Virus record (IMG/VR): IMGVR_UViG_651053023_000001
Span: 1-64,000 of that record
DNA: 64,000 bases
Direction: 5' to 3' (one strand)
Source: a virus
Taxonomy: Duplodnaviria > Heunggongvirae > Uroviricota > Caudoviricetes
Part shown: piece by piece, positions 36,711-46,339 of the stretch
Layout: every line of letters begins with the position of its first letter
Numbering within the stretch: the stretch's first letter is position 1
Made by a program: the position numbers and the translations under genes
The notes under the pieces: generated by a model
Told to the model about the DNA's origin: nothing
Seen by the model: only the letters and a program-made list of their open reading frames with translations
The model's database searches: none

Positions 36711-37550
36711 TCAGGCGTCGCTATCCAGCAACAAATCATCTGCGCGTGTGCGATCAAACGTAGGTGTCGCTTTCACAATAGTGCCACCAGGCGTTGCGGT
36801 GATCGGGGCGCTAATCGACGTAACTCCAGTAAGCGAAGTTGTATCCGAAGTTTCAAACCAGCAGAATGCTTTTTCGGTATCAGAAATCTCGTTCAAAGTG
36901 ATCATGTCGGCCTGTTCATTTACAACAACCGACAAATAGAGCGTAAGCCCATCAAACACTATATGCAGTGGCAGTAGAGGCTTTACGAACTGATTAAACT
37001 TTCTGAGAATTTCTTCTGTAATTGCGGACTGATCTATCGTGCCAGTAATCCCCATTGTCCGGGCCAGGTCGTTTATGGGAATACTGATCATCCCTCTGGA
37101 AGTCAGAAACATCTCGCCGAATGTGCCGCCGGTAGTCTCCAGTGTGCTTTCTGGTATTAGAACCGTGCCATAGGGATGACGCTCAAGGTCCACCGGTGCA
37201 TATATCGGATCCCATAAAACAGAAATACCGTTAAATTCGCGGTAAATTGTCTGGTTTATAGGGCGTTCAGTCCCCTTAAAGTGAATCTCATCAAGACGCT
37301 GTTGTAACAACATCGGAACGGAAGATGAGTTCGACGTTCTGATAGTAAAGAACTGGCCAAGTTCATTTGTCCTGGTCTCCAGATCCTCCTTGCTCATGGA
37401 AAAAATAGACTTCCGGTTGGTAATTCGCTCCAACCATGGGTCAACAAAGGTATCCATCATTGACTGAACCAAATCAGCCAATGATTTATAGAGCAATGAC
37501 TTTTGCTTAGCTGATGTAAGCCGGTTATTAAACCAGGAACGCTGCATCAC
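36711..37550 (-). CDS. baseplate protein (gene 16-like, by synteny)
   Basis: 279-aa ORF in the tail/baseplate block, overlapping the next gene by 4 nt. Confidence 0.45.
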   Translation of the reverse strand: MMQRSWFNNRLTSAKQKSLLYKSLADLVQSMMDTFVDPWLERITNRKSIFSMSKEDLETRTNELGQFFTIRTSNSSSVPMLLQQRLDEIHFKGTERPINQTIYREFNGISVLWDPIYAPVDLERHPYGTVLIPESTLETTGGTFGEMFLTSRGMISIPINDLARTMGITGTIDQSAITEEILRKFNQFVKPLLPLHIVFDGLTLYLSVVVNEQADMITLNEISDTEKAFCWFETSDTTSLTGVTSISAPITATPGGTIVKATPTFDRTRADDLLLDSDA

Positions 37551-38980
37551 TCCTCCTCATACGAAATATTAAAGGTGGAGTTTTCTGTATCCAGATAAAC
37601 GAAATCGTAAAAGCCGTTGGACTCATTCCACTCGACAAATTCCAGATAAAAGTCGCGGAAATAACCCAGCGTTTCGATAAATGCCCAAACGTCTTTTTTC
37701 TTGATTAGGATGTACTTGCCGACACGGTTCGGATCAAAGAAAGTTGAGTCACGCCCAAATTTTGTTTCCAGTGCCGACTTCAGCTCATCAGTCACGTTCT
37801 CAATGGTCAGGCTTGCCGATATCCGCCCGGTGATGGTGATCTTAAAGGGTAGTTTTCTGACCTCTTTATACGAGAATTTCTTGTTCAACTCATTCGGCAC
37901 CTTCTTAAAGGCAGCCAGGATCATTTCTTCAAGCTCTGACTGGCTTTTGTTTGGATGCCATCCTGAAATAAATATCTTATTGATATTCCGAACATTATAA
38001 GCACCATCTAATTTCTCTTGCTGGCCTTCGCCCCATGCCTTTACCCAGGACAGTCCCGGGATGTTACGCACCAGAAAATACGTATAGTCCCCGCCCCATA
38101 CGACCTGATCATCATAGGCAAGGTAATATTGTGCACGATTACGTGTGATCTCCGTTGTTTCGGCATCGGTACCTGCGGTTATGGGTGTCGTTGTCTTAAC
38201 TGAAATCAAATTAGCTAAATTAGCCGCAGAATCGACAGGCGTCAGATTTTGGCCAGCAACCAAGGTTATATCTCCGTTGGTGCACCATACCTTAAGTGTA
38301 ATGGTCGAGCCTTCTGGCGGTATTTGCCCAATTAGCCCATCACCGAATCGAACCCCCAACTGCTCGGATGGTTTATAAAACTCAACGTAGACCTGGCTTT
38401 TACTACCGGCTAACCGGAACATAGTGCTGGAAGACCACTGCGTGGTCTTACCATCGGTCGTCACGAATACTTCCAGCTTATAGCAGACAGCAGTGAGAGC
38501 CTTTGATAACACGACTTCCAGAAATTCTTTGGCAGCCGTAACGGTATATGTCACCTCCTGGATTTCCAACTGTGCCACTTCTACCGTACCGGTGCCGTCA
38601 ACCAACCTGCATACATCCATAGTCATGTAAGGGTACTGGTCGTCAGATATTAAAGGCATGTTTTTGGGGATTACCGCTGGGGCATCTTCACTTGTGGCGG
38701 TGATCTCAATCATCCCCGATGACGGTGTTGGCTTGGTACCAACGTAACTATTCGTTTCTGCCGCTGCCAGGATAGAGGAACGCCGCGTCGCGGTCGATAT
38801 AAAGCCTTCAGCCAGCGCCGCATCGGCATACTGAAAGCACCTGTAGACAATCTGGGTAATAAACAATGTCAGCATCGAGACAAATTGAGAGCCGACAAAC
38901 TTCGACCAGAATGAATCTTTCTCGACAAGCTCTTCAAACTCTGCACGAATACTGTCTTTAGTCGGTGTTGTTTTACTCAT
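37547..38980 (-). CDS. baseplate protein (BplA-like, by synteny)
   Basis: 477-aa ORF, translationally coupled to neighbours. Confidence 0.45.
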   Translation of the reverse strand: MSKTTPTKDSIRAEFEELVEKDSFWSKFVGSQFVSMLTLFITQIVYRCFQYADAALAEGFISTATRRSSILAAAETNSYVGTKPTPSSGMIEITATSEDAPAVIPKNMPLISDDQYPYMTMDVCRLVDGTGTVEVAQLEIQEVTYTVTAAKEFLEVVLSKALTAVCYKLEVFVTTDGKTTQWSSSTMFRLAGSKSQVYVEFYKPSEQLGVRFGDGLIGQIPPEGSTITLKVWCTNGDITLVAGQNLTPVDSAANLANLISVKTTTPITAGTDAETTEITRNRAQYYLAYDDQVVWGGDYTYFLVRNIPGLSWVKAWGEGQQEKLDGAYNVRNINKIFISGWHPNKSQSELEEMILAAFKKVPNELNKKFSYKEVRKLPFKITITGRISASLTIENVTDELKSALETKFGRDSTFFDPNRVGKYILIKKKDVWAFIETLGYFRDFYLEFVEWNESNGFYDFVYLDTENSTFNISYEEE

Positions 38981-39336
38981 AGCACCACGTCCTGTGTGAT
39001 AGTTATATCCCTGATACGAATGGATATTTTCAACTTATCAAAAGCATCTCCCTCGGCTACTGACAAGCCAGAAATCGGTATGTCAGGTAAATCTACCGTC
39101 AGTTTTTGCAACAGCATTGCCTCAACCGCAATTTGAACATGCGACAAGTTGGTCGGTTCGTGTTTAAACTGCGGTAAAACATTGCCCCATGACGGATCCC
39201 CGTATACCTCACCCTGATAAGTGTTTAGCCACTCATATAAACGAGCGCCCCAGGCCTCCTCTTGGGACTCATACGTTTTTACGCCGGATAACTCCAGCGT
39301 CAGCAAAGGATCAATTTCGTTATTGTTGGCCATCAA
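38977..39336 (-). CDS. small tail morphogenesis protein
   Basis: 119-aa ORF between the sit-like and baseplate genes. Confidence 0.4.
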   Translation of the reverse strand: MMANNNEIDPLLTLELSGVKTYESQEEAWGARLYEWLNTYQGEVYGDPSWGNVLPQFKHEPTNLSHVQIAVEAMLLQKLTVDLPDIPISGLSVAEGDAFDKLKISIRIRDITITQDVVL

Positions 39337-42300
39337 TCAACTCTCGCGTAGTCATTCATCAACGGATCATCAATTGACAGTGGCACCGTGCGCATAACGC
39401 CCGGTTGAGGCGTGCTGACCTTTACGACAGTTCCCTGGCCTTTCGCCGAGTCTTTAGTGTGCTCTTCAATCCTGGCAAGCAATGAGGTCATCTGCGCAAA
39501 CAGCCGCTTCGTTTCACCATCAAGTGAAACGGTATTATCAGCCAACTGCATTGTCGGCTTGGCACCGGAGCCGCCAAGGTCACTAATAACCTGTCCGTCT
39601 ATCTGCATACGACCGGTTGGTTGCTGCAAATCGTTGGCGGCAGTCGTCACCTGGGACGTGGAGGCTGGTTCAGGCGCATTATTTTTCCGCATCCCCGGCG
39701 AGTTGCGGAGTTTATCGAATAGTCCATCAATCCCCATTTGTGCGCCGAGCTGGTCAAAGTAACTTGAGTTGTTGGCCACCGGACGCGCCTCTTCAACTGG
39801 CATCGGGGTATCAACATACACATTGCCAGCTGCTGTTGCGGTCCCCTTCCCTCGTGCACGTTCTTCGAGCGTTCCCTGAACGACTTCCCGACGCATACCC
39901 CGGCCATTCATGAATTTGTTGACCAGATCGTTAACGCCAACAGCATTGCCGATTTTGTCTACCAGACCGCCTTTCTCAAACGGGCTATCACCAGGGGTAA
40001 ACGCCAAGCCAGTAGACTGATCGATAACAGCGTTATCAGGCAGTGGTCCCCTCACTCCATATTGCGCCCCACCCTGTGCTCCTGCTCCAGGTGTATAGAT
40101 TTCACCACCTAAATAGCGAGCACGATGAGTATTGACCTTGATCGCGTACTCACGGTTTTCTTTCGATAAGTCACCTGTGCCTTTTTTCCACTTATTGATA
40201 GTGCCAAACCCAGCGTTATATGCAGTGATGGCCTCGTTTAAGTCTCCATTGGCTTGCTTCAGATACTTGCTCATGAGAAGAGCCGCAGCTTCTGCCGATT
40301 TCACAGGATCAAACGATTCACCTTCAGCTAAGCCAGTCTCTTCACGAGCAATCCCCGTGAACTGAAACATTCCCAGAGCACCGGTTTGGGATTTTGCATA
40401 CGGATTACCACCAGATTCAGTTGCAGCAATCGCGTAAAGAGTGCCTTCTGGAAGACCGTATTTATTCTCTAGTTCGGCAAAATACGGAGCCAACTTATCG
40501 AGATTTGCCTTACCTTCAGCGCCAAGACTTCCGACTTTTACATCTAAGTTGCCATTGTTGTAAGTATCCGCAGCTTTCTGAATGTCATTCCTGGTGCCAG
40601 TAGTATTAAGCGACGATGATGATGAGCTATTTTGACCAATAGCATTATCAATTTTCTGCAACGCGCTATTGCCCGTTTCTACGGCATTTGCATTGATAAT
40701 CTGATTGGCAGTTTCTTTAACTGTTTTATTGCTATCTTTCGCCGTATCTAGGGATGCATTTACAACACGAGTGACAATATTAGCCTTTTTAGGGGTATAT
40801 TCAGTCTTAGGAGCATTGTCCTCCTGACTTTCTTTAGCTGGTGTTTTTAATTCAGGTGTAACCTCTTTCGCATCCGCTTTGTTGACTAGCTTTGATGCAA
40901 CCCAGGCCACAGGGGTGCTCTGAACAGCGGCATCTGCAACCTCACCTGAAAGCTCTTTTGCGGCACTCCATAGATTACTGCCAGCTTCTTTAATGTATTT
41001 CCCTGGGTTCTTAATGAAATCAATTGCACTATCAATTGCATCACTGAAAACCTGTTTCAGGTTATCGACAGTAAAGAAGTTTTTGATGGCGTCTAATTTT
41101 TCGTTCAGGTTCTTTGTTGTGTCACTGAACCATGCTGAAATAGCATCACCAATCTTTGCAGTATAATCACTAAATGTCGTGGATATAGTATCACCAAGGT
41201 TAGAAATATATGTTTCTAAATTGGTAATCCCACTATCAATGGCCTGGGCAATACTTTCCGTCGAAAATGATTGCAACATATTGCCGATATCCTCAAATCC
41301 AAGTGATTTGAGAACGCCGCCAATGGCACTGCTAATACCAGATACCAGTCCTCCCATATCGAGAACGTTAGCCAGTGTATAAGCCGCTTTTTGCTGAAAA
41401 GATGGATCTTCCCCATCCTTAAGCCCAAAGGTCCGACGTTGTGCTTCTGTATCATTCCAACCGGTTACCGCATCATAGATACCTCCAGCCACCGTGCCGA
41501 CTAGCGGAATTGCGCGTAAAGCCCCCTTTGCAAGAGCCTTAACACCTAGTTTCCCCAATCCCTTAGTTGCAAGTTTTCCGGCACCGCGAGTAGCCAATTC
41601 GCCAGCTTCTTTGGCAGCAGCTTTTTTCCCACCAAAGCCCAATAAGCTTGCAACTTTTTTTATACCTAAAGCGCCTAGTGCCATCGAGCCAACTTTCTTT
41701 AGTACCCCACGGCCAAAAATAAGGGAAGCAATACCACCGGCCCCCTTCCCTAACAGGCTAAATAGTTTGGACAGCAAGCCGCCCTTCTTTTTCCCGGTGT
41801 TTTTGGCTATCTGATCAAGGGCGCTGAGAATCTTGTCATTGCCCTCTTTAATTTCGCTGGTCTGCTCCTGAAGTTCCTGAACCGTCCGTTTTTGGGTGTT
41901 AACCTGAACGACATCGGCACTATTTTGCGATTTACGCCTAAAAAAACCTTTTCTACGGCTGTTATCGTCATTGCCACGAATCACATCGGCAATAGACTTT
42001 CTGGCACCATTAAGCGATCCACCAACTTCTTTTGATATCCCGCCAAGCTCCTTCCCTGCTGCCCACAATGGACCAGCAACGGCATAACCTAACGCATCGA
42101 CGGCACGAGTCTCTGAAGGGTTACCTATGCCTTCAGCTACTTTTGACAGTTTTTTTAATAAACCTGATTCAGCATTTAGACGCTCATCATCCTCTTTGCG
42201 CCTGGCCTTTTCAGCACGTTCAGCACGGGCATCTTCCGCTGCGGCCTTACTCCCTGACTTTCCAATAAAACGACCACGCGCATCGCGTTGGTTTTGGCTT

Positions 42301-43028
42301 TTTTGCGCACCGCCTTTTTGATCGAACATTTTGCGAGCGTGTTCGGCTGCTTCGGTCCGTTGTGCCTTTATATCCTCTGGTATAGCCTTCCTGCGTCGTT
42401 TTTTACCCTTTGGTGTAGTTGATTTGGCCTGCTGTTCCTGTTGAGCAATGCCCTCCTGAACTACACGAGAAACGTCCCCTAAATTAAGCCGTTTCATTGC
42501 ATCAACAATAGGGTCTACTGATGGCGCATTGGCCACAAAGTCTGGCCGGGAATTTTCGATTGTTCGATTTAATGCCGACACACTGCGAGATACTGGGTCA
42601 ACCGTTGCAACGCGTTCCCCTTTCAAATCACGATCGAGTTTGACCGTTTCTAACCGCTGTGCTTTAACATCCTCTGTTATTGCCTCTCTTCGTCTATTTG
42701 GGGGATTGTGCGCTGTTGGTGCAGCCTGCTGTTCACGGTTAGTGACTTTGTCCTCCCGTATACGAGAAACGTCCCCTAAATTAAGCCGTTTCATTGCGTC
42801 AACAATAGAGTCCACTGATGGCGCATTGGTCACAAAGTCAGGACGTGAATTTTCGATTGTGCGATTTAATGCCGACACACTGCGAGAGACAGGATCAACA
42901 GTTGCAACTCGTTCCCCTTTCAAATCTTCAACAGCTTCCCGAATACCTGCAAGCTCTTCCAGCTCTTTCGCGCTGGCGGTTTCAACTGTCCTTATAACAT
43001 CGTCAATATTGGCGTTTTTTCTTTCCAT
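39333..43028 (-). CDS. sit: Sit-like tape-measure/injection protein with lytic transglycosylase domain
   Basis: 1231 aa; SLT-type motif ...ATESGGNPYAKSQTGALGMFQF...; Gly/Ala/Lys-rich central region; internal tandem duplication. Confidence 0.8.
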   Translation of the reverse strand: MERKNANIDDVIRTVETASAKELEELAGIREAVEDLKGERVATVDPVSRSVSALNRTIENSRPDFVTNAPSVDSIVDAMKRLNLGDVSRIREDKVTNREQQAAPTAHNPPNRRREAITEDVKAQRLETVKLDRDLKGERVATVDPVSRSVSALNRTIENSRPDFVANAPSVDPIVDAMKRLNLGDVSRVVQEGIAQQEQQAKSTTPKGKKRRRKAIPEDIKAQRTEAAEHARKMFDQKGGAQKSQNQRDARGRFIGKSGSKAAAEDARAERAEKARRKEDDERLNAESGLLKKLSKVAEGIGNPSETRAVDALGYAVAGPLWAAGKELGGISKEVGGSLNGARKSIADVIRGNDDNSRRKGFFRRKSQNSADVVQVNTQKRTVQELQEQTSEIKEGNDKILSALDQIAKNTGKKKGGLLSKLFSLLGKGAGGIASLIFGRGVLKKVGSMALGALGIKKVASLLGFGGKKAAAKEAGELATRGAGKLATKGLGKLGVKALAKGALRAIPLVGTVAGGIYDAVTGWNDTEAQRRTFGLKDGEDPSFQQKAAYTLANVLDMGGLVSGISSAIGGVLKSLGFEDIGNMLQSFSTESIAQAIDSGITNLETYISNLGDTISTTFSDYTAKIGDAISAWFSDTTKNLNEKLDAIKNFFTVDNLKQVFSDAIDSAIDFIKNPGKYIKEAGSNLWSAAKELSGEVADAAVQSTPVAWVASKLVNKADAKEVTPELKTPAKESQEDNAPKTEYTPKKANIVTRVVNASLDTAKDSNKTVKETANQIINANAVETGNSALQKIDNAIGQNSSSSSSLNTTGTRNDIQKAADTYNNGNLDVKVGSLGAEGKANLDKLAPYFAELENKYGLPEGTLYAIAATESGGNPYAKSQTGALGMFQFTGIAREETGLAEGESFDPVKSAEAAALLMSKYLKQANGDLNEAITAYNAGFGTINKWKKGTGDLSKENREYAIKVNTHRARYLGGEIYTPGAGAQGGAQYGVRGPLPDNAVIDQSTGLAFTPGDSPFEKGGLVDKIGNAVGVNDLVNKFMNGRGMRREVVQGTLEERARGKGTATAAGNVYVDTPMPVEEARPVANNSSYFDQLGAQMGIDGLFDKLRNSPGMRKNNAPEPASTSQVTTAANDLQQPTGRMQIDGQVISDLGGSGAKPTMQLADNTVSLDGETKRLFAQMTSLLARIEEHTKDSAKGQGTVVKVSTPQPGVMRTVPLSIDDPLMNDYARVD
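42470..42940. repeat. tandem duplication (~297-bp period) inside the sit 5' region
   Basis: Protein repeat DLKGERVATVDPVSRSVSALNRTIENSRPDFV.NAPSVD.IVDAMKRLNLGDVSR occurs twice ~97 aa apart; mirrored in the antisense ORF 42529..43056. Confidence 0.6.
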
Positions 43029-43109
43029 GATCTTATCGCCTACCGTTTCGGTTTAAGTTTTTCTTCCAGTTTCTCCAACAGGAAAAACGCATAGGATTCA
43101 GTAAGCCTT

Positions 43110-43991
43110 TCAGCGTCCTGAATCGGTATACCCCCATACAAAACCAGGTTGGACACTAAGGTCTGATAGCTTTTCAATCCCCACCTGTGGAATGAAGTCG
43201 GTAGCCCGAAAGGGCACCCACAGACGGGTATATGCACCCTCTGTGGACTCCTTTTTATCCTGATTTGGGCATTTATGCGGCGGGAGACGAAGACGCATTT
43301 CACCTTTATCGATGTAGCACGGTAAACCATGTTCGAGCTTTTCATGAGCCAGTCGGATGTGTGCCGCCAGCTTCATAAATTCAGTATCAATGGCCATCCG
43401 TTTAATCGTTTCATAACGACGCTCAGCCTGATCTTCACGAGTACCGCTAACATCGTTATAAAGCTCACACTGATAAGCGAATTCCCAAAAACGCAAATCA
43501 ACGATCGCTTCTTTGAATTCCGCGTCGTCTTCAGGTGGCAATGCTGCACGGCGCATCTCCAGCATTTCCATTGCCCAACCATCAAGCGGCACGATACGCC
43601 ATTGATAAGGTACTCCCTCTACAGACACCTCAATATCGTCAATGAAAGGTTCCACTTCCAGGACCTGGATATCTTCAGCCAGAGCATTCATATCGCAATC
43701 GTAATAATGCTCTTTACCGCAATGTTTACAGGTGTAGGTGAATGTCTCGACCGGTGTTTCACGGGAGCCGGTAAATATCCACCATAACGCGGTAATCCGG
43801 TCCTGCGCCGTCCATGTCAGGGGATCATGTTTCGCGGGTTCAGCAAGCAAGGCTTTTAAATACGCCGTTGTCTGTTGTTCTTGTTCCTCCGGTGTTATCG
43901 AGTTGAAACGCATCGCATCAGCAATATTTGGCTGACGGAACTGGATCAATTCAGTTGGCCGCGATGGTAGCGGGAAAAGAGGTAAAAGCAT
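43110..43991 (-). CDS. hypothetical morphogenesis protein
   Basis: 293-aa ORF upstream of sit. Confidence 0.45.
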   Translation of the reverse strand: MLLPLFPLPSRPTELIQFRQPNIADAMRFNSITPEEQEQQTTAYLKALLAEPAKHDPLTWTAQDRITALWWIFTGSRETPVETFTYTCKHCGKEHYYDCDMNALAEDIQVLEVEPFIDDIEVSVEGVPYQWRIVPLDGWAMEMLEMRRAALPPEDDAEFKEAIVDLRFWEFAYQCELYNDVSGTREDQAERRYETIKRMAIDTEFMKLAAHIRLAHEKLEHGLPCYIDKGEMRLRLPPHKCPNQDKKESTEGAYTRLWVPFRATDFIPQVGIEKLSDLSVQPGFVWGYTDSGR

Positions 43992-44005: not shown

Positions 44006-44617
44006 TCAAAGAGAAAAGCTAAAGCCCAGAAGGGAAGCCAAAGAACTTGAGGATTGGTTAAACGTGCTGTGCAATGCGAAGGTCATTGGGAATGACTTAA
44101 ATTCAGTAACCTGATCTCGCGCATAGGTGACATCGCCGGTAGTGACCGGGAATACCGTCATCTCATTTTCCAGTTTGGTTAAGCCGGAAGACAGCAACCG
44201 ATAAATACGCACATTGAGCAAATATTTAGACGGTATATTCCCGGTACCGTCCGGATTGATCACCCGACTTTTTGCCGTCTTAAACCAGTCCAAAACGAGG
44301 CCATCAACGGTATCCCTGACCATCATTGTTATCTGCCCAGGCGAACGCTCCGTTGGTTGAAGGATATTCCCTCCGCCGATTTTAATCGTTTCATATTCGA
44401 TGCTGTAATCGTGGTAGGTAATGTCTTTGGCAAAGAAGTCTGCCCCCTCCAGTCCATCAACTTCGACAGAGAACTGCCATCCTTGCGCGAACAGCATTTT
44501 GTTCATGATGATTGACGTCAGCTTACCAACTTCCCGCTCACCAACGCCGGAGCCAAATAATGTCGTCGTTAATGCCGAAGATACATAAGACTTTACTGAA
44601 GCAACATTAAGCCCCAT
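44006..44617 (-). CDS. hypothetical tail protein
   Basis: 203-aa ORF in the tail block. Confidence 0.45.
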   Translation of the reverse strand: MGLNVASVKSYVSSALTTTLFGSGVGEREVGKLTSIIMNKMLFAQGWQFSVEVDGLEGADFFAKDITYHDYSIEYETIKIGGGNILQPTERSPGQITMMVRDTVDGLVLDWFKTAKSRVINPDGTGNIPSKYLLNVRIYRLLSSGLTKLENEMTVFPVTTGDVTYARDQVTEFKSFPMTFALHSTFNQSSSSLASLLGFSFSL

Positions 44618-45274: not shown

Positions 45275-45814
45275 CTACCACCAACTGCTAGCTTTCTTCT
45301 CTCTAGCTTTTCCTTCGCTTTGCAGTAAATCTTTACTTCCTGTAGAAATATTTCTATTTGCATCAGCCTCAGACTGAATTACATCTGTCTTAGCTGCTCT
45401 CTCCTTCAACTCCTGCTCTATAAAATCGTTTTCTCGCTGGACACGAGCCGCTTTTGCTTGCAGTTCGAGTTTCATGCTTTCGAGTTGCAGCTTGCGAAGC
45501 TCATCCTCATAAGCTTGATCTCGCTTCTTGTCATTTGCTAGCTCGGCTTCTCGTTTCGCTCTACGTTCATTTTCTGCAGCAACACGCTGTTTTTCGCGTG
45601 CAGCAGCGGCAGATGCTGCTTTTTCTCTTCTAATACGTTCAGCTTGTGCTTGTTGGCGAATAAGTTCTTTTCTGGCATCCTCAGCTTGCTGCTCTTTAGC
45701 TCGCCCTTCATTTTCCGCTTGAGCAATAGCAGCAATTTGACTTTGCAACGAGTTAGCCAAGGCAGTGCCTACACTAAACGTAGAAAAGATTAGAAATAAA
45801 ATAATTTTATTCAT
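45275..45814 (-). CDS. secreted charged coiled-coil protein (TolA domain II-like Ala/Glu/Lys/Arg repeats)
   Basis: N-terminal signal peptide MNKIILFLIFSTFSVGTALA followed by ~140 aa of highly charged helical repeat; AT-rich. Confidence 0.55.
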   Translation of the reverse strand: MNKIILFLIFSTFSVGTALANSLQSQIAAIAQAENEGRAKEQQAEDARKELIRQQAQAERIRREKAASAAAAREKQRVAAENERRAKREAELANDKKRDQAYEDELRKLQLESMKLELQAKAARVQRENDFIEQELKERAAKTDVIQSEADANRNISTGSKDLLQSEGKAREKKASSWW

Positions 45815-45817
45815 AAA

Positions 45818-46339
45818 TTATTTCTTTTCTGGACAAGTAGCATTTGGCTGAATTCGAGTTTCATTATCTTTAGTTGAAATAAGCACAGCAAGCCCCGTTG
45901 TAAACTGGCATGCTTTACCAACTTGAGTTGAAGTGAACACCTTAGTTCCTTCTTTATAAGTCAGTGAAACACCTTCAACAATTGTTTTATCACTAACCAA
46001 AGAACCAGCCGCTGCACCAAGAGCCGCACCACCAGTACCGCCAGCTACAGCACCCAGTGTCGATGTGCCTTTAACATTATAACCGGCAACGCCCCCAGCA
46101 ACAGCTCCCAGTACCGCACCAAATGTCTGTGCCGCTTCTTTATTAGCTTTATTATCAACTTTCACTTTAGCTGGAAGCACAGAGATAATATTGACTGTCT
46201 TTGTTTCCTGCTTCGAATTCAATTGAGCGGTATCATAAACATCGGCAGCATAATCAGCACCGCTAGATTGACACCCAGAAAGAAGAATTGCAGATACAAC
46301 AAGAGCGCATAAAGTATACTTTTTAGACATAAGAATCAT
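45818..46339 (-). CDS. glycine-zipper lipoprotein (SlyB/Pcp-like)
   Basis: Lipobox ILLSGC; glycine-zipper GAVLGAVAGGVAGYNV...GAVAGGTGGAALGAAAGSL; AT-rich. Confidence 0.55.
   Translation of the reverse strand: MILMSKKYTLCALVVSAILLSGCQSSGADYAADVYDTAQLNSKQETKTVNIISVLPAKVKVDNKANKEAAQTFGAVLGAVAGGVAGYNVKGTSTLGAVAGGTGGAALGAAAGSLVSDKTIVEGVSLTYKEGTKVFTSTQVGKACQFTTGLAVLISTKDNETRIQPNATCPEKK

Follow-up and report, generated by a model that had tools for sequence, protein, structure and literature searches.

One, two or three copies of a 99-residue N-terminal unit in Sit, the assigned tape measure protein of P1-family phages

The DNA considered here, positions 1 to 64,000 of the IMG/VR virus record IMGVR_UViG_651053023_000001 (Caudoviricetes) and hereafter called the window, looks as a whole like a P1-type phage-plasmid, and its minus strand carries a homolog of P1 sit, the gene of the assigned tail tape measure protein (TMP). 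We found that the 5' part of this sit gene holds two head-to-tail in-frame units of 297 nucleotides (nt), or 99 codons, each, with zero spacer, and that one-, two- and three-unit alleles of sit occur among related phages and plasmids. Our preferred reading, to which we give a probability of about 0.6, is that the unit is an old, copy-variable N-terminal module of the tape measure of P1-family myophages and that every extra unit lengthens the ruler. In-frame duplications in tape measure genes are a known kind of variation, of which the one/two/three-unit polymorphism of P1 Sit is a new example; our literature search found no paper describing it.

The tandem units in sit

The repeat lies far beyond chance, since the best 212-nt self-diagonal of the region gave 179 matches, whereas 200 shuffles averaged 80.5 and never exceeded 90. 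A direct-repeat search paired positions 42418-42629 with 42715-42926 (212 nt, 84% identity, 297 nt from start to start). Tandem Repeats Finder (minimum score 30) missed the repeat, which was recovered by the direct-repeat search and by direct alignment. An original prediction, made from the sequence of the window, had proposed that a sit-like gene is duplicated in tandem and in frame close to its N-terminal end, and our analysis bears this out: self-comparison and alignment give a 297-nt period with copies that abut in frame, and the gene aligns with P1 sit at 91.6% nt identity along 91% of its length, has an SLT domain and lies in the pmgB-sit-pmgA-bplA synteny. The details needed revision. 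The unit is 99 amino acids (aa) long instead of about 97, and the proposed range of 42470-42940 takes in copy 1 together with the well-conserved first half of copy 2, the true extent being 42333-42926 (Table 1). The high identity ascribed to the copies belongs to their first 55 aa (96% aa, 92% nt) and not to their last 44 aa (41% aa, 61% nt).

Divergence between the two copies is thus concentrated in one part of the unit. Over the first 55 aa, copy 1 and copy 2 show 13 differences, 11 of them synonymous, which corresponds to 92.1% nt identity, a synonymous divergence (dS) of 0.32 and a nonsynonymous divergence (dN) of 0.017. The last 44 aa form a charged linker with 60.6% nt identity, dS of ~0.99 and dN of 0.47. 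Similarity drops abruptly at unit nt 165/166, where the mismatches per 33 nt go from 0 to 14-16, and the in-register identical runs between the copies (36 nt for the longest, then 26, 17 and 16 nt) all lie in the conserved sub-module. Taken over the whole unit, 65 of 297 nt differ (78% nt and 72% aa identity).

An antisense open reading frame (ORF) of 175 aa at 42529-43056 on the plus strand, inside the repeat region of sit, shows the repeated peptide KSGREFSIVRFNADTLR.TGSTVATRSPFKS. We rejected this ORF as a gene: it mirrors the duplication in sit and comes without evidence of being a gene.

Copy number, age and recombination of the unit

Seven named P1-group phages, P1, P7, SJ46, JL22, RCS47, MH422554 and Ro157c2, have one unit in the protein alignment, and this unit is the counterpart of copy 2. 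The more distantly related Cronobacter phage JK004 and four IMG/VR contigs (L099-L102), at 50-70% identity, likewise have one unit, which keeps the anchor motifs SLKG, PRSVAA, AMKxLNLG and EAAxQAR and has a hypervariable linker of other length and composition. A profile search of genome contigs with the window/JK004 alignment returned only two Escherichia loci, both single-copy. When one unit was searched by phmmer against 1.84 billion representative proteins, the matches were three P1-like proteins, a 72-aa fragment with 96% identity over the first 24 residues of the unit, and one unrelated repeat protein. Given that the named phages and the distant relatives are single-unit, and given the result of the 1.84-billion-protein search, these comparisons indicate that one unit is the ancestral state of sit and that the module is confined to the P1 Sit family. 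The proteins are 1130-1140 aa long with one unit, 1229-1246 aa with two and 1338 aa with three, and the Sit N-terminus of phi456, a plaque-forming phage, is identical to the two-unit N-terminus of the window.

Two proteins from these searches call for comment. P0025 (727 aa; six weak stretches, 26% identity, E-value 2.6e-5) was dismissed as a relative of the unit, being an unrelated beta-rich repeat protein. P0022 (1009 aa) is chimeric, running from the end of copy 1 through copy 2 and about 100 aa of Sit into a long stretch of unrelated residues, and may stem from a misassembly or from a P1-like element that has been rearranged.

The two-copy allele is neither rare nor private to IMGVR_UViG_651053023_000001. 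The segment specific to copy 1 was present in 137 of 479 sit-bearing PLSDB plasmids (29%) and in 197 of the 471 sit-bearing genomes (42%) in a set of 5426 complete E. coli genomes, where nine further segment sites are candidates for three-copy alleles. The two-copy form is also not universal in P1-family sit, and universality is what would have counted against the original prediction: besides the seven named phages, about 71% of the sit-bearing PLSDB plasmids and about 58% of the sit-bearing complete E. coli genomes are single-copy. Among the parsable loci from IMG/VR contigs, GenBank phage and PLSDB records and the window, we counted 63 one-unit, 20 two-unit and 3 three-unit alleles. Hosts of the plasmids with a P1-like sit include Escherichia, Salmonella, Shigella and Klebsiella.

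Current annotation leaves out part of this region. In NZ_CP031654.1 (L096; 3763-7503) the two-copy sit ORF is intact from MERKNANI and encodes 1246 aa, and the current RefSeq/PGAP coding sequence starts at M234 (MFDQKGG...), just past the repeats; many other two-copy records have no annotated feature over the repeat. Because the start is misplaced or the feature absent, protein databases lack the first 233 aa of Sit for such records, and these annotation gaps hide the polymorphism from protein-level surveys.

Three-unit alleles were found in pEC15-3, pXH987-OQX, phage 813R1 and pRIVM_C029554_1, the last of which (L095; NZ_CP068934) has an intact three-unit sit of 1338 aa. The middle unit of the three-copy alleles is a hybrid that joins a first half of copy-2 type to a second half of copy-1 type, which is the product expected of unequal crossover in the conserved half. 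In our haplotype table the crossover lies at unit nt 160-166 in L011 and L012 (NZ_CP060921.1 and NZ_CP102674.1) and at about nt 105-111 in L095; two distinct crossover points imply at least two independent expansions. The same table reveals conversion tracts of differing length at the 5' end of copy 1. Mosaic alleles include a single-copy allele with a copy-1-type patch (L082), a first copy with a single-type first half (L093) and two alleles in which the extra unit is joined with an SJ46-type copy 2 (L094 and the mosaic L028). Furthermore, the 1400-nt flanks of some multi-copy alleles are identical to those of single-copy alleles, and the mean distance between multi-copy and single-copy alleles equals the mean distance inside each class. 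As judged from these alleles, copy number is uncoupled from the flanking haplotype and keeps changing as the conserved halves undergo gene conversion and unequal homologous recombination. High-frequency (phase-variable) switching of units seems unlikely, and switching is expected to be rare because the units are 22% diverged and their identical runs do not exceed 36 nt.

The extra unit itself has a longer history. Copy 1 carries bases that are unseen in 63 single-copy units, 43 at unit nt 166-297 and one more at nt 118, and copy 2 has four synonymous changes of its own at unit nt 27-39. Multi-copy alleles thus have an array interior that is private to them and outer parts that are common to the single-copy pool, a pattern expected of an old in situ duplication whose flanks were later exchanged in register with single-copy alleles. 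The second half of the extra unit has no close relative in any single-copy allele, and database matches to its IREDK-type linker are bimodal, at either ≥93% or ≤55%. In searches for a donor of this linker by tblastn against plasmids and phages (E-values up to 1-10) and by phmmer against the 1.84 billion representative proteins, we found only sit itself; weak matches in Bacillus phages (E-value 4) were treated as chance. Homologous-protein searches yielded partial proteins almost exclusively for the first 300 aa and a single fragment for the 61-aa junction peptide, and these did not inform the origin. Because of the dS of 0.32 in the first half and ~0.99 in the second, together with the private linker bases, the extra unit is old, and on either of the origins weighed below there was no recent duplication. 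The original prediction had taken the repeat as a possible mark of recent rearrangement, and this part does not hold: the copies are separated by dS of 0.3 and ~1, the linker is without a close single-copy relative, and the allele is widespread and itself diversified. What is recent and recurrent is the change in number of already existing units, seen in the expansions from two to three and in the mosaic single-copy alleles.

Expected effect on tail length and alternative readings

Unit duplications occur in mycobacteriophage TMPs, and in-frame TMP duplications reportedly lengthen the tails of lambda (work attributed to Katsura & Hendrix, 1984) and of T4 (attributed to Abuladze, 1994). In TP901-1 the tail tracks the length of its TMP at 0.145 nm per aa, and a TMP with an N-terminal duplication gave a longer tail with the titre kept (PMC5099701). 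P1 Sit was detected as a virion protein using liquid chromatography-tandem mass spectrometry and was assigned as the TMP on its size, predicted helicity and SLT domain (PMC9024508), and a 2026 cryo-electron microscopy (cryo-EM) paper on P1 also names Sit as the TMP (PMC12810830). Since Sit is the assigned TMP of P1 in both studies, lengthening of the tape measure is a reasonable reading of the extra units. The P1 tail has 53 sheath rings and 52 tube rings, and the termini of its tail terminator turn disordered on release of the TMP (PMC12810830). Phage phi456 forms plaques and has myovirus morphology (PMC10967188), and a two-unit Sit must therefore work, the Sit N-terminus of phi456 being identical to that of the window.

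With the length variants, engineered or natural, of lambda gpH, T4 gp29 and the TP901-1 TMP, the window Sit shares an internal duplication that keeps the frame of a long tail protein (predicted with low confidence to be mainly helical in Sit), a gene position between tube/chaperone and baseplate genes, and an expected ~0.15 nm per residue (PMC5099701 for TP901-1). What sets Sit apart is variation that is natural, common and three-state within one phage species group; its unit is long (99 aa), half-conserved and extremely N-terminal, and its effect on tail length is a prediction. The polymorphism also resembles variable number tandem repeat (VNTR)-like genes of bacterial surface proteins in its whole in-frame unit differences, its hybrid units from unequal crossing-over and its conversion tracts; unlike these genes, sit has only one to three copies, with units that are 22% diverged and identical runs of at most 36 nt.

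Each unit, then, pairs a conserved 55-aa part with a fast-evolving, charged 44-aa linker. One unit is ancestral and the window carries the same two-unit allele as the viable phi456, with one-, two- and three-unit alleles coexisting in natural P1-like plasmids of E. coli, Salmonella, Shigella and Klebsiella. Unequal recombination and conversion among these alleles yield the hybrid middle units and the mosaic single-copy alleles and set copy number free of the flanks. As to the tail, we hypothesize that Sit runs along the tube lumen, the conserved C-terminus being held in the baseplate hub and the N-terminal end pointing toward the tail terminator, such that each extra, largely helical unit would lengthen the ruler by ~15 nm (99 aa x 0.15 nm), or roughly 4 more tube and sheath rings, with infectivity kept. 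By analogy with the systems above, the one-, two- and three-unit polymorphism probably changes tail length. A bolder version, in which P1-family phage-plasmids of natural E. coli have a three-state tail-length switch of ~53, 57 or 61 sheath rings that arises by recurrent unequal recombination and whose states are held by selection at intermediate frequency (~30-40% multi-copy), for example for hosts differing in O-antigen or capsule thickness, strikes us as improbable; if true, no natural and balanced polymorphism of tail length would have been documented earlier in a model myophage.

Several observations weigh against a lengthening of the ruler. Sit is not resolved in the P1 cryo-EM map, in which only low-resolution hub density is seen (PMC12810830), so its orientation and extension in the tail are assumed. 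The N-terminal 154 aa of the TP901-1 TMP are essential, partly embedded and not length-setting (PMC5099701). Our AlphaFold2 single-sequence model of Sit aa 1-350 shows mostly helix, interrupted in the linkers, and is of low confidence (mean predicted local distance difference test score 56.6), and the linker halves look disordered and charged, which makes the gain in length per residue uncertain. An all-helix ruler also fits P1 poorly, as 1140 aa at 0.15 nm give 171 nm versus ~210 nm for 52 tube rings at ~4 nm; a purely helical Sit would thus fall short of a tail of ~210 nm if it were a simple helical ruler, and part of Sit may not act as ruler. The paper on phi456 (PMC10967188) and those on 673R5 and 813R1 give no tail lengths and no comments on sit, and the first does not mention the duplication. 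Finally, the three-copy sit of L011 and L012 is frameshifted about 1560 nt into the gene, near aa 520.

Two observations stand beside these points. Published values for the P1 tail differ by source: Gonzales et al. gave 120 nm, which about 750 helical residues would fit (PMC9024508), versus a length near 210 nm from the ring counts (PMC12810830) at ~4 nm per ring. At the frameshift, L011 and L012 read NSRRKVFLGV... versus NSRRKGFFRR..., and sit is unannotated in both records; the shift is either a homopolymer sequencing error or real decay.

A possible, if doubtful, alternative is that the module is real and copy-variable without serving as ruler. It might bind PmgB or the tail terminator, be ejected or periplasmic, or form a flexible folded spacer, and copy number would then be neutral or would affect assembly or ejection. 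Such a role would suit the linker halves, which are charged and poor in hydrophobic residues, are hypervariable across the wider family and were modeled at low confidence, and it would suit a P1 tube whose 52 rings exceed an all-helical Sit of 1140 aa, a case in which the length-per-residue rule is already imperfect. The TP901-1 extrapolation, moreover, suggests that ~127 terminal residues add no length (PMC5099701), and one-, two- and three-copy alleles sit on near-identical backgrounds, as they would for a nearly neutral trait. However, both copies show strong purifying selection on their conserved half (dN/dS ~0.05), which argues that the extra unit is not junk, and the prediction gives helix for most of the unit. 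In-frame TMP duplications do lengthen tails in TP901-1 (PMC5099701) and reportedly in lambda and T4. A module lengthening the Sit ruler remains our preferred reading of function.

The origin of the extra unit is open to another interpretation, since the unit could have been imported by recombination from a divergent, unsampled sit lineage, the apparent duplication being a mosaic insertion. We regard this as a tentative explanation that several features would fit: the boundary at unit nt 165/166 is sharp (0 to 14-16 mismatches per 33 nt), no intermediates connect IREDK-type and VVQE-type linkers, the P1 unit (93.3%) and copy 2 (92.1%) are about equally close to the first half of copy 1, and mosaicism is pervasive in the repeat region. 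However, searches of phages, plasmids, 5.8 billion clustered proteins and the 1.84 billion representative proteins turned up no donor. Among all matches to the IREDK segment the best is its own paralog, with the same 44-aa length and the same order of motifs (RRR-AI-ED-KAQR), whereas real distant lineages have linkers of other length and composition, and the combination of shared flanks with a private interior is what in-register recombination after an old in situ duplication would produce. On these sequence features we somewhat favor an old duplication in situ over the import of a divergent segment. A very different explanation, that the repeat was expanded in assembly or sequencing, we consider close to impossible and rejected. 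Some related phage records (vB_EcoM-673R5, 813R1) are indeed riddled with frameshifts, but the copies differ at 65 of 297 positions with no identical run above 36 nt, and assemblers would not expand or collapse such copies; the identical protein is present on 67 contigs, and 197 complete E. coli genomes as well as the independently isolated phi456 have the same arrangement.

Natural alleles with one, two and three units on near-identical backgrounds, at least one of them in a plaque-forming phage, offer a direct test of Sit as a ruler. If tail length scales with the number of units, Sit would be confirmed as the ruler, the nm per residue could be calibrated in a myophage, and P1-like elements in clinical and veterinary E. 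coli would differ in virion geometry; if tail length is unchanged, this would be a routine mosaic polymorphism.

Gene identity, neighborhood and other observations

The window Sit corresponds to P1 Sit (AAQ14011.1, 1140 aa) in gene, synteny, SLT domain and conserved N- and C-termini, and the two proteins align colinearly except for the extra unit. P1 Sit has one 99-aa unit; the window Sit (1231 aa) has two, and differs further by the residues KLATKGLG and a divergent Gly/Lys-rich block at about aa 430-500. The nt identity of the window sit is 99.7% to phi456 sit and 99.0% to vB_EcoM-673R5, and phi456 Sit (WNL49372.1) has the same two-unit N-terminus with essentially no difference in the repeat. 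The family phrog_2533 is matched end to end, with Sit aa 134-1231 on profile positions 35-1130 plus a second stretch. An E. coli plasmid from swine, CP142546.1, is 100% identical to the 5' 829 nt of the window sit, and the exact window protein is deposited at NCBI from 67 contigs under a generic name (EEQ2016080.1 and others). The gene order tub-pmgB-sit-pmgA-bplA, all on the minus strand, equals that of the annotated P1 and phi456 loci (Table 1). PmgB has been proposed as the tape measure chaperone of P1 (PMC9024508).

Table 1. Positions of the repeat units, their parts and the surrounding genes in the window
Feature	Position	Strand	Remarks
Repeat copy 1, extra unit without counterpart in P1-type single-copy alleles	42630-42926	minus	aa 35-133; P1, P7, SJ46 and others gapped by 99 aa here (protein alignment)
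Repeat copy 2, ortholog of the single unit of P1	42333-42629	minus	aa 134-232; second half 94.7% nt identical to P1 unit
Copy 1 conserved sub-module, DLKGERV...MKRLNLGDVSR	42762-42926	minus	unit nt 1-165, aa 35-89
Copy 1 divergent charged linker half, IREDKVTN...LETVKLDR	42630-42761	minus	unit nt 166-297; private to multi-copy alleles
Copy 2 conserved sub-module	42465-42629	minus	unit nt 1-165
Copy 2 linker half, VVQEGIAQQ...TEAAEHAR, P1-type	42333-42464	minus	0 mismatches to nearest single-copy allele in every 33-nt window
New junction R133/D134 made by duplication	42629/42630	minus	frame kept, no spacer
sit homolog, putative tail tape measure / structural injection transglycosylase	39333-43028	minus	1231-aa ORF
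SLT lytic transglycosylase domain of Sit, C-terminal third	40155-40484	minus	aa 849-958; Pfam PF01464, E-value 4.8e-27, 94.3 bits (cut-off 21.3)
tub homolog	44006-44617	minus	ORF; P1 gene order
pmgB homolog, 293 aa, directly upstream of sit	43110-43991	minus	ORF; synteny with P1 and phi456 annotation
pmgA homolog, ~118 aa, baseplate wedge, directly downstream, overlaps sit stop codon	38977-39336	minus	ORF; synteny
bplA homolog	37547-38980	minus	ORF; P1 gene order

A second length polymorphism lies at about aa 430-497 of Sit (window ~41540-41740), where the window, phi456 and SJ46 share the 8-aa insertion KLATKGLG. It sits in a Gly/Lys/Ala-rich block that is strongly divergent from the block of P1, P7 and RCS47, and this divergence suggests a mosaic block swap.

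Phage P1 carries three tRNA genes. ARAGORN detected none in the 64-kb window, and P1-type tRNA genes may lie outside the window or may be absent in its lineage. Upstream of a pmgC-like gene we observed two small ORFs at 45275-45814 and 45818-46339, both on the minus strand. One encodes 179 aa rich in Ala, Glu, Arg and Lys and has a counterpart in L096 that is annotated as a DUF5384 family protein; the other encodes 173 aa, begins like a lipoprotein and includes a stretch rich in Gly and Ala. Since the P1-like plasmid L095 has different genes in this place, the position at 45275-46339 looks like a variable accessory slot.

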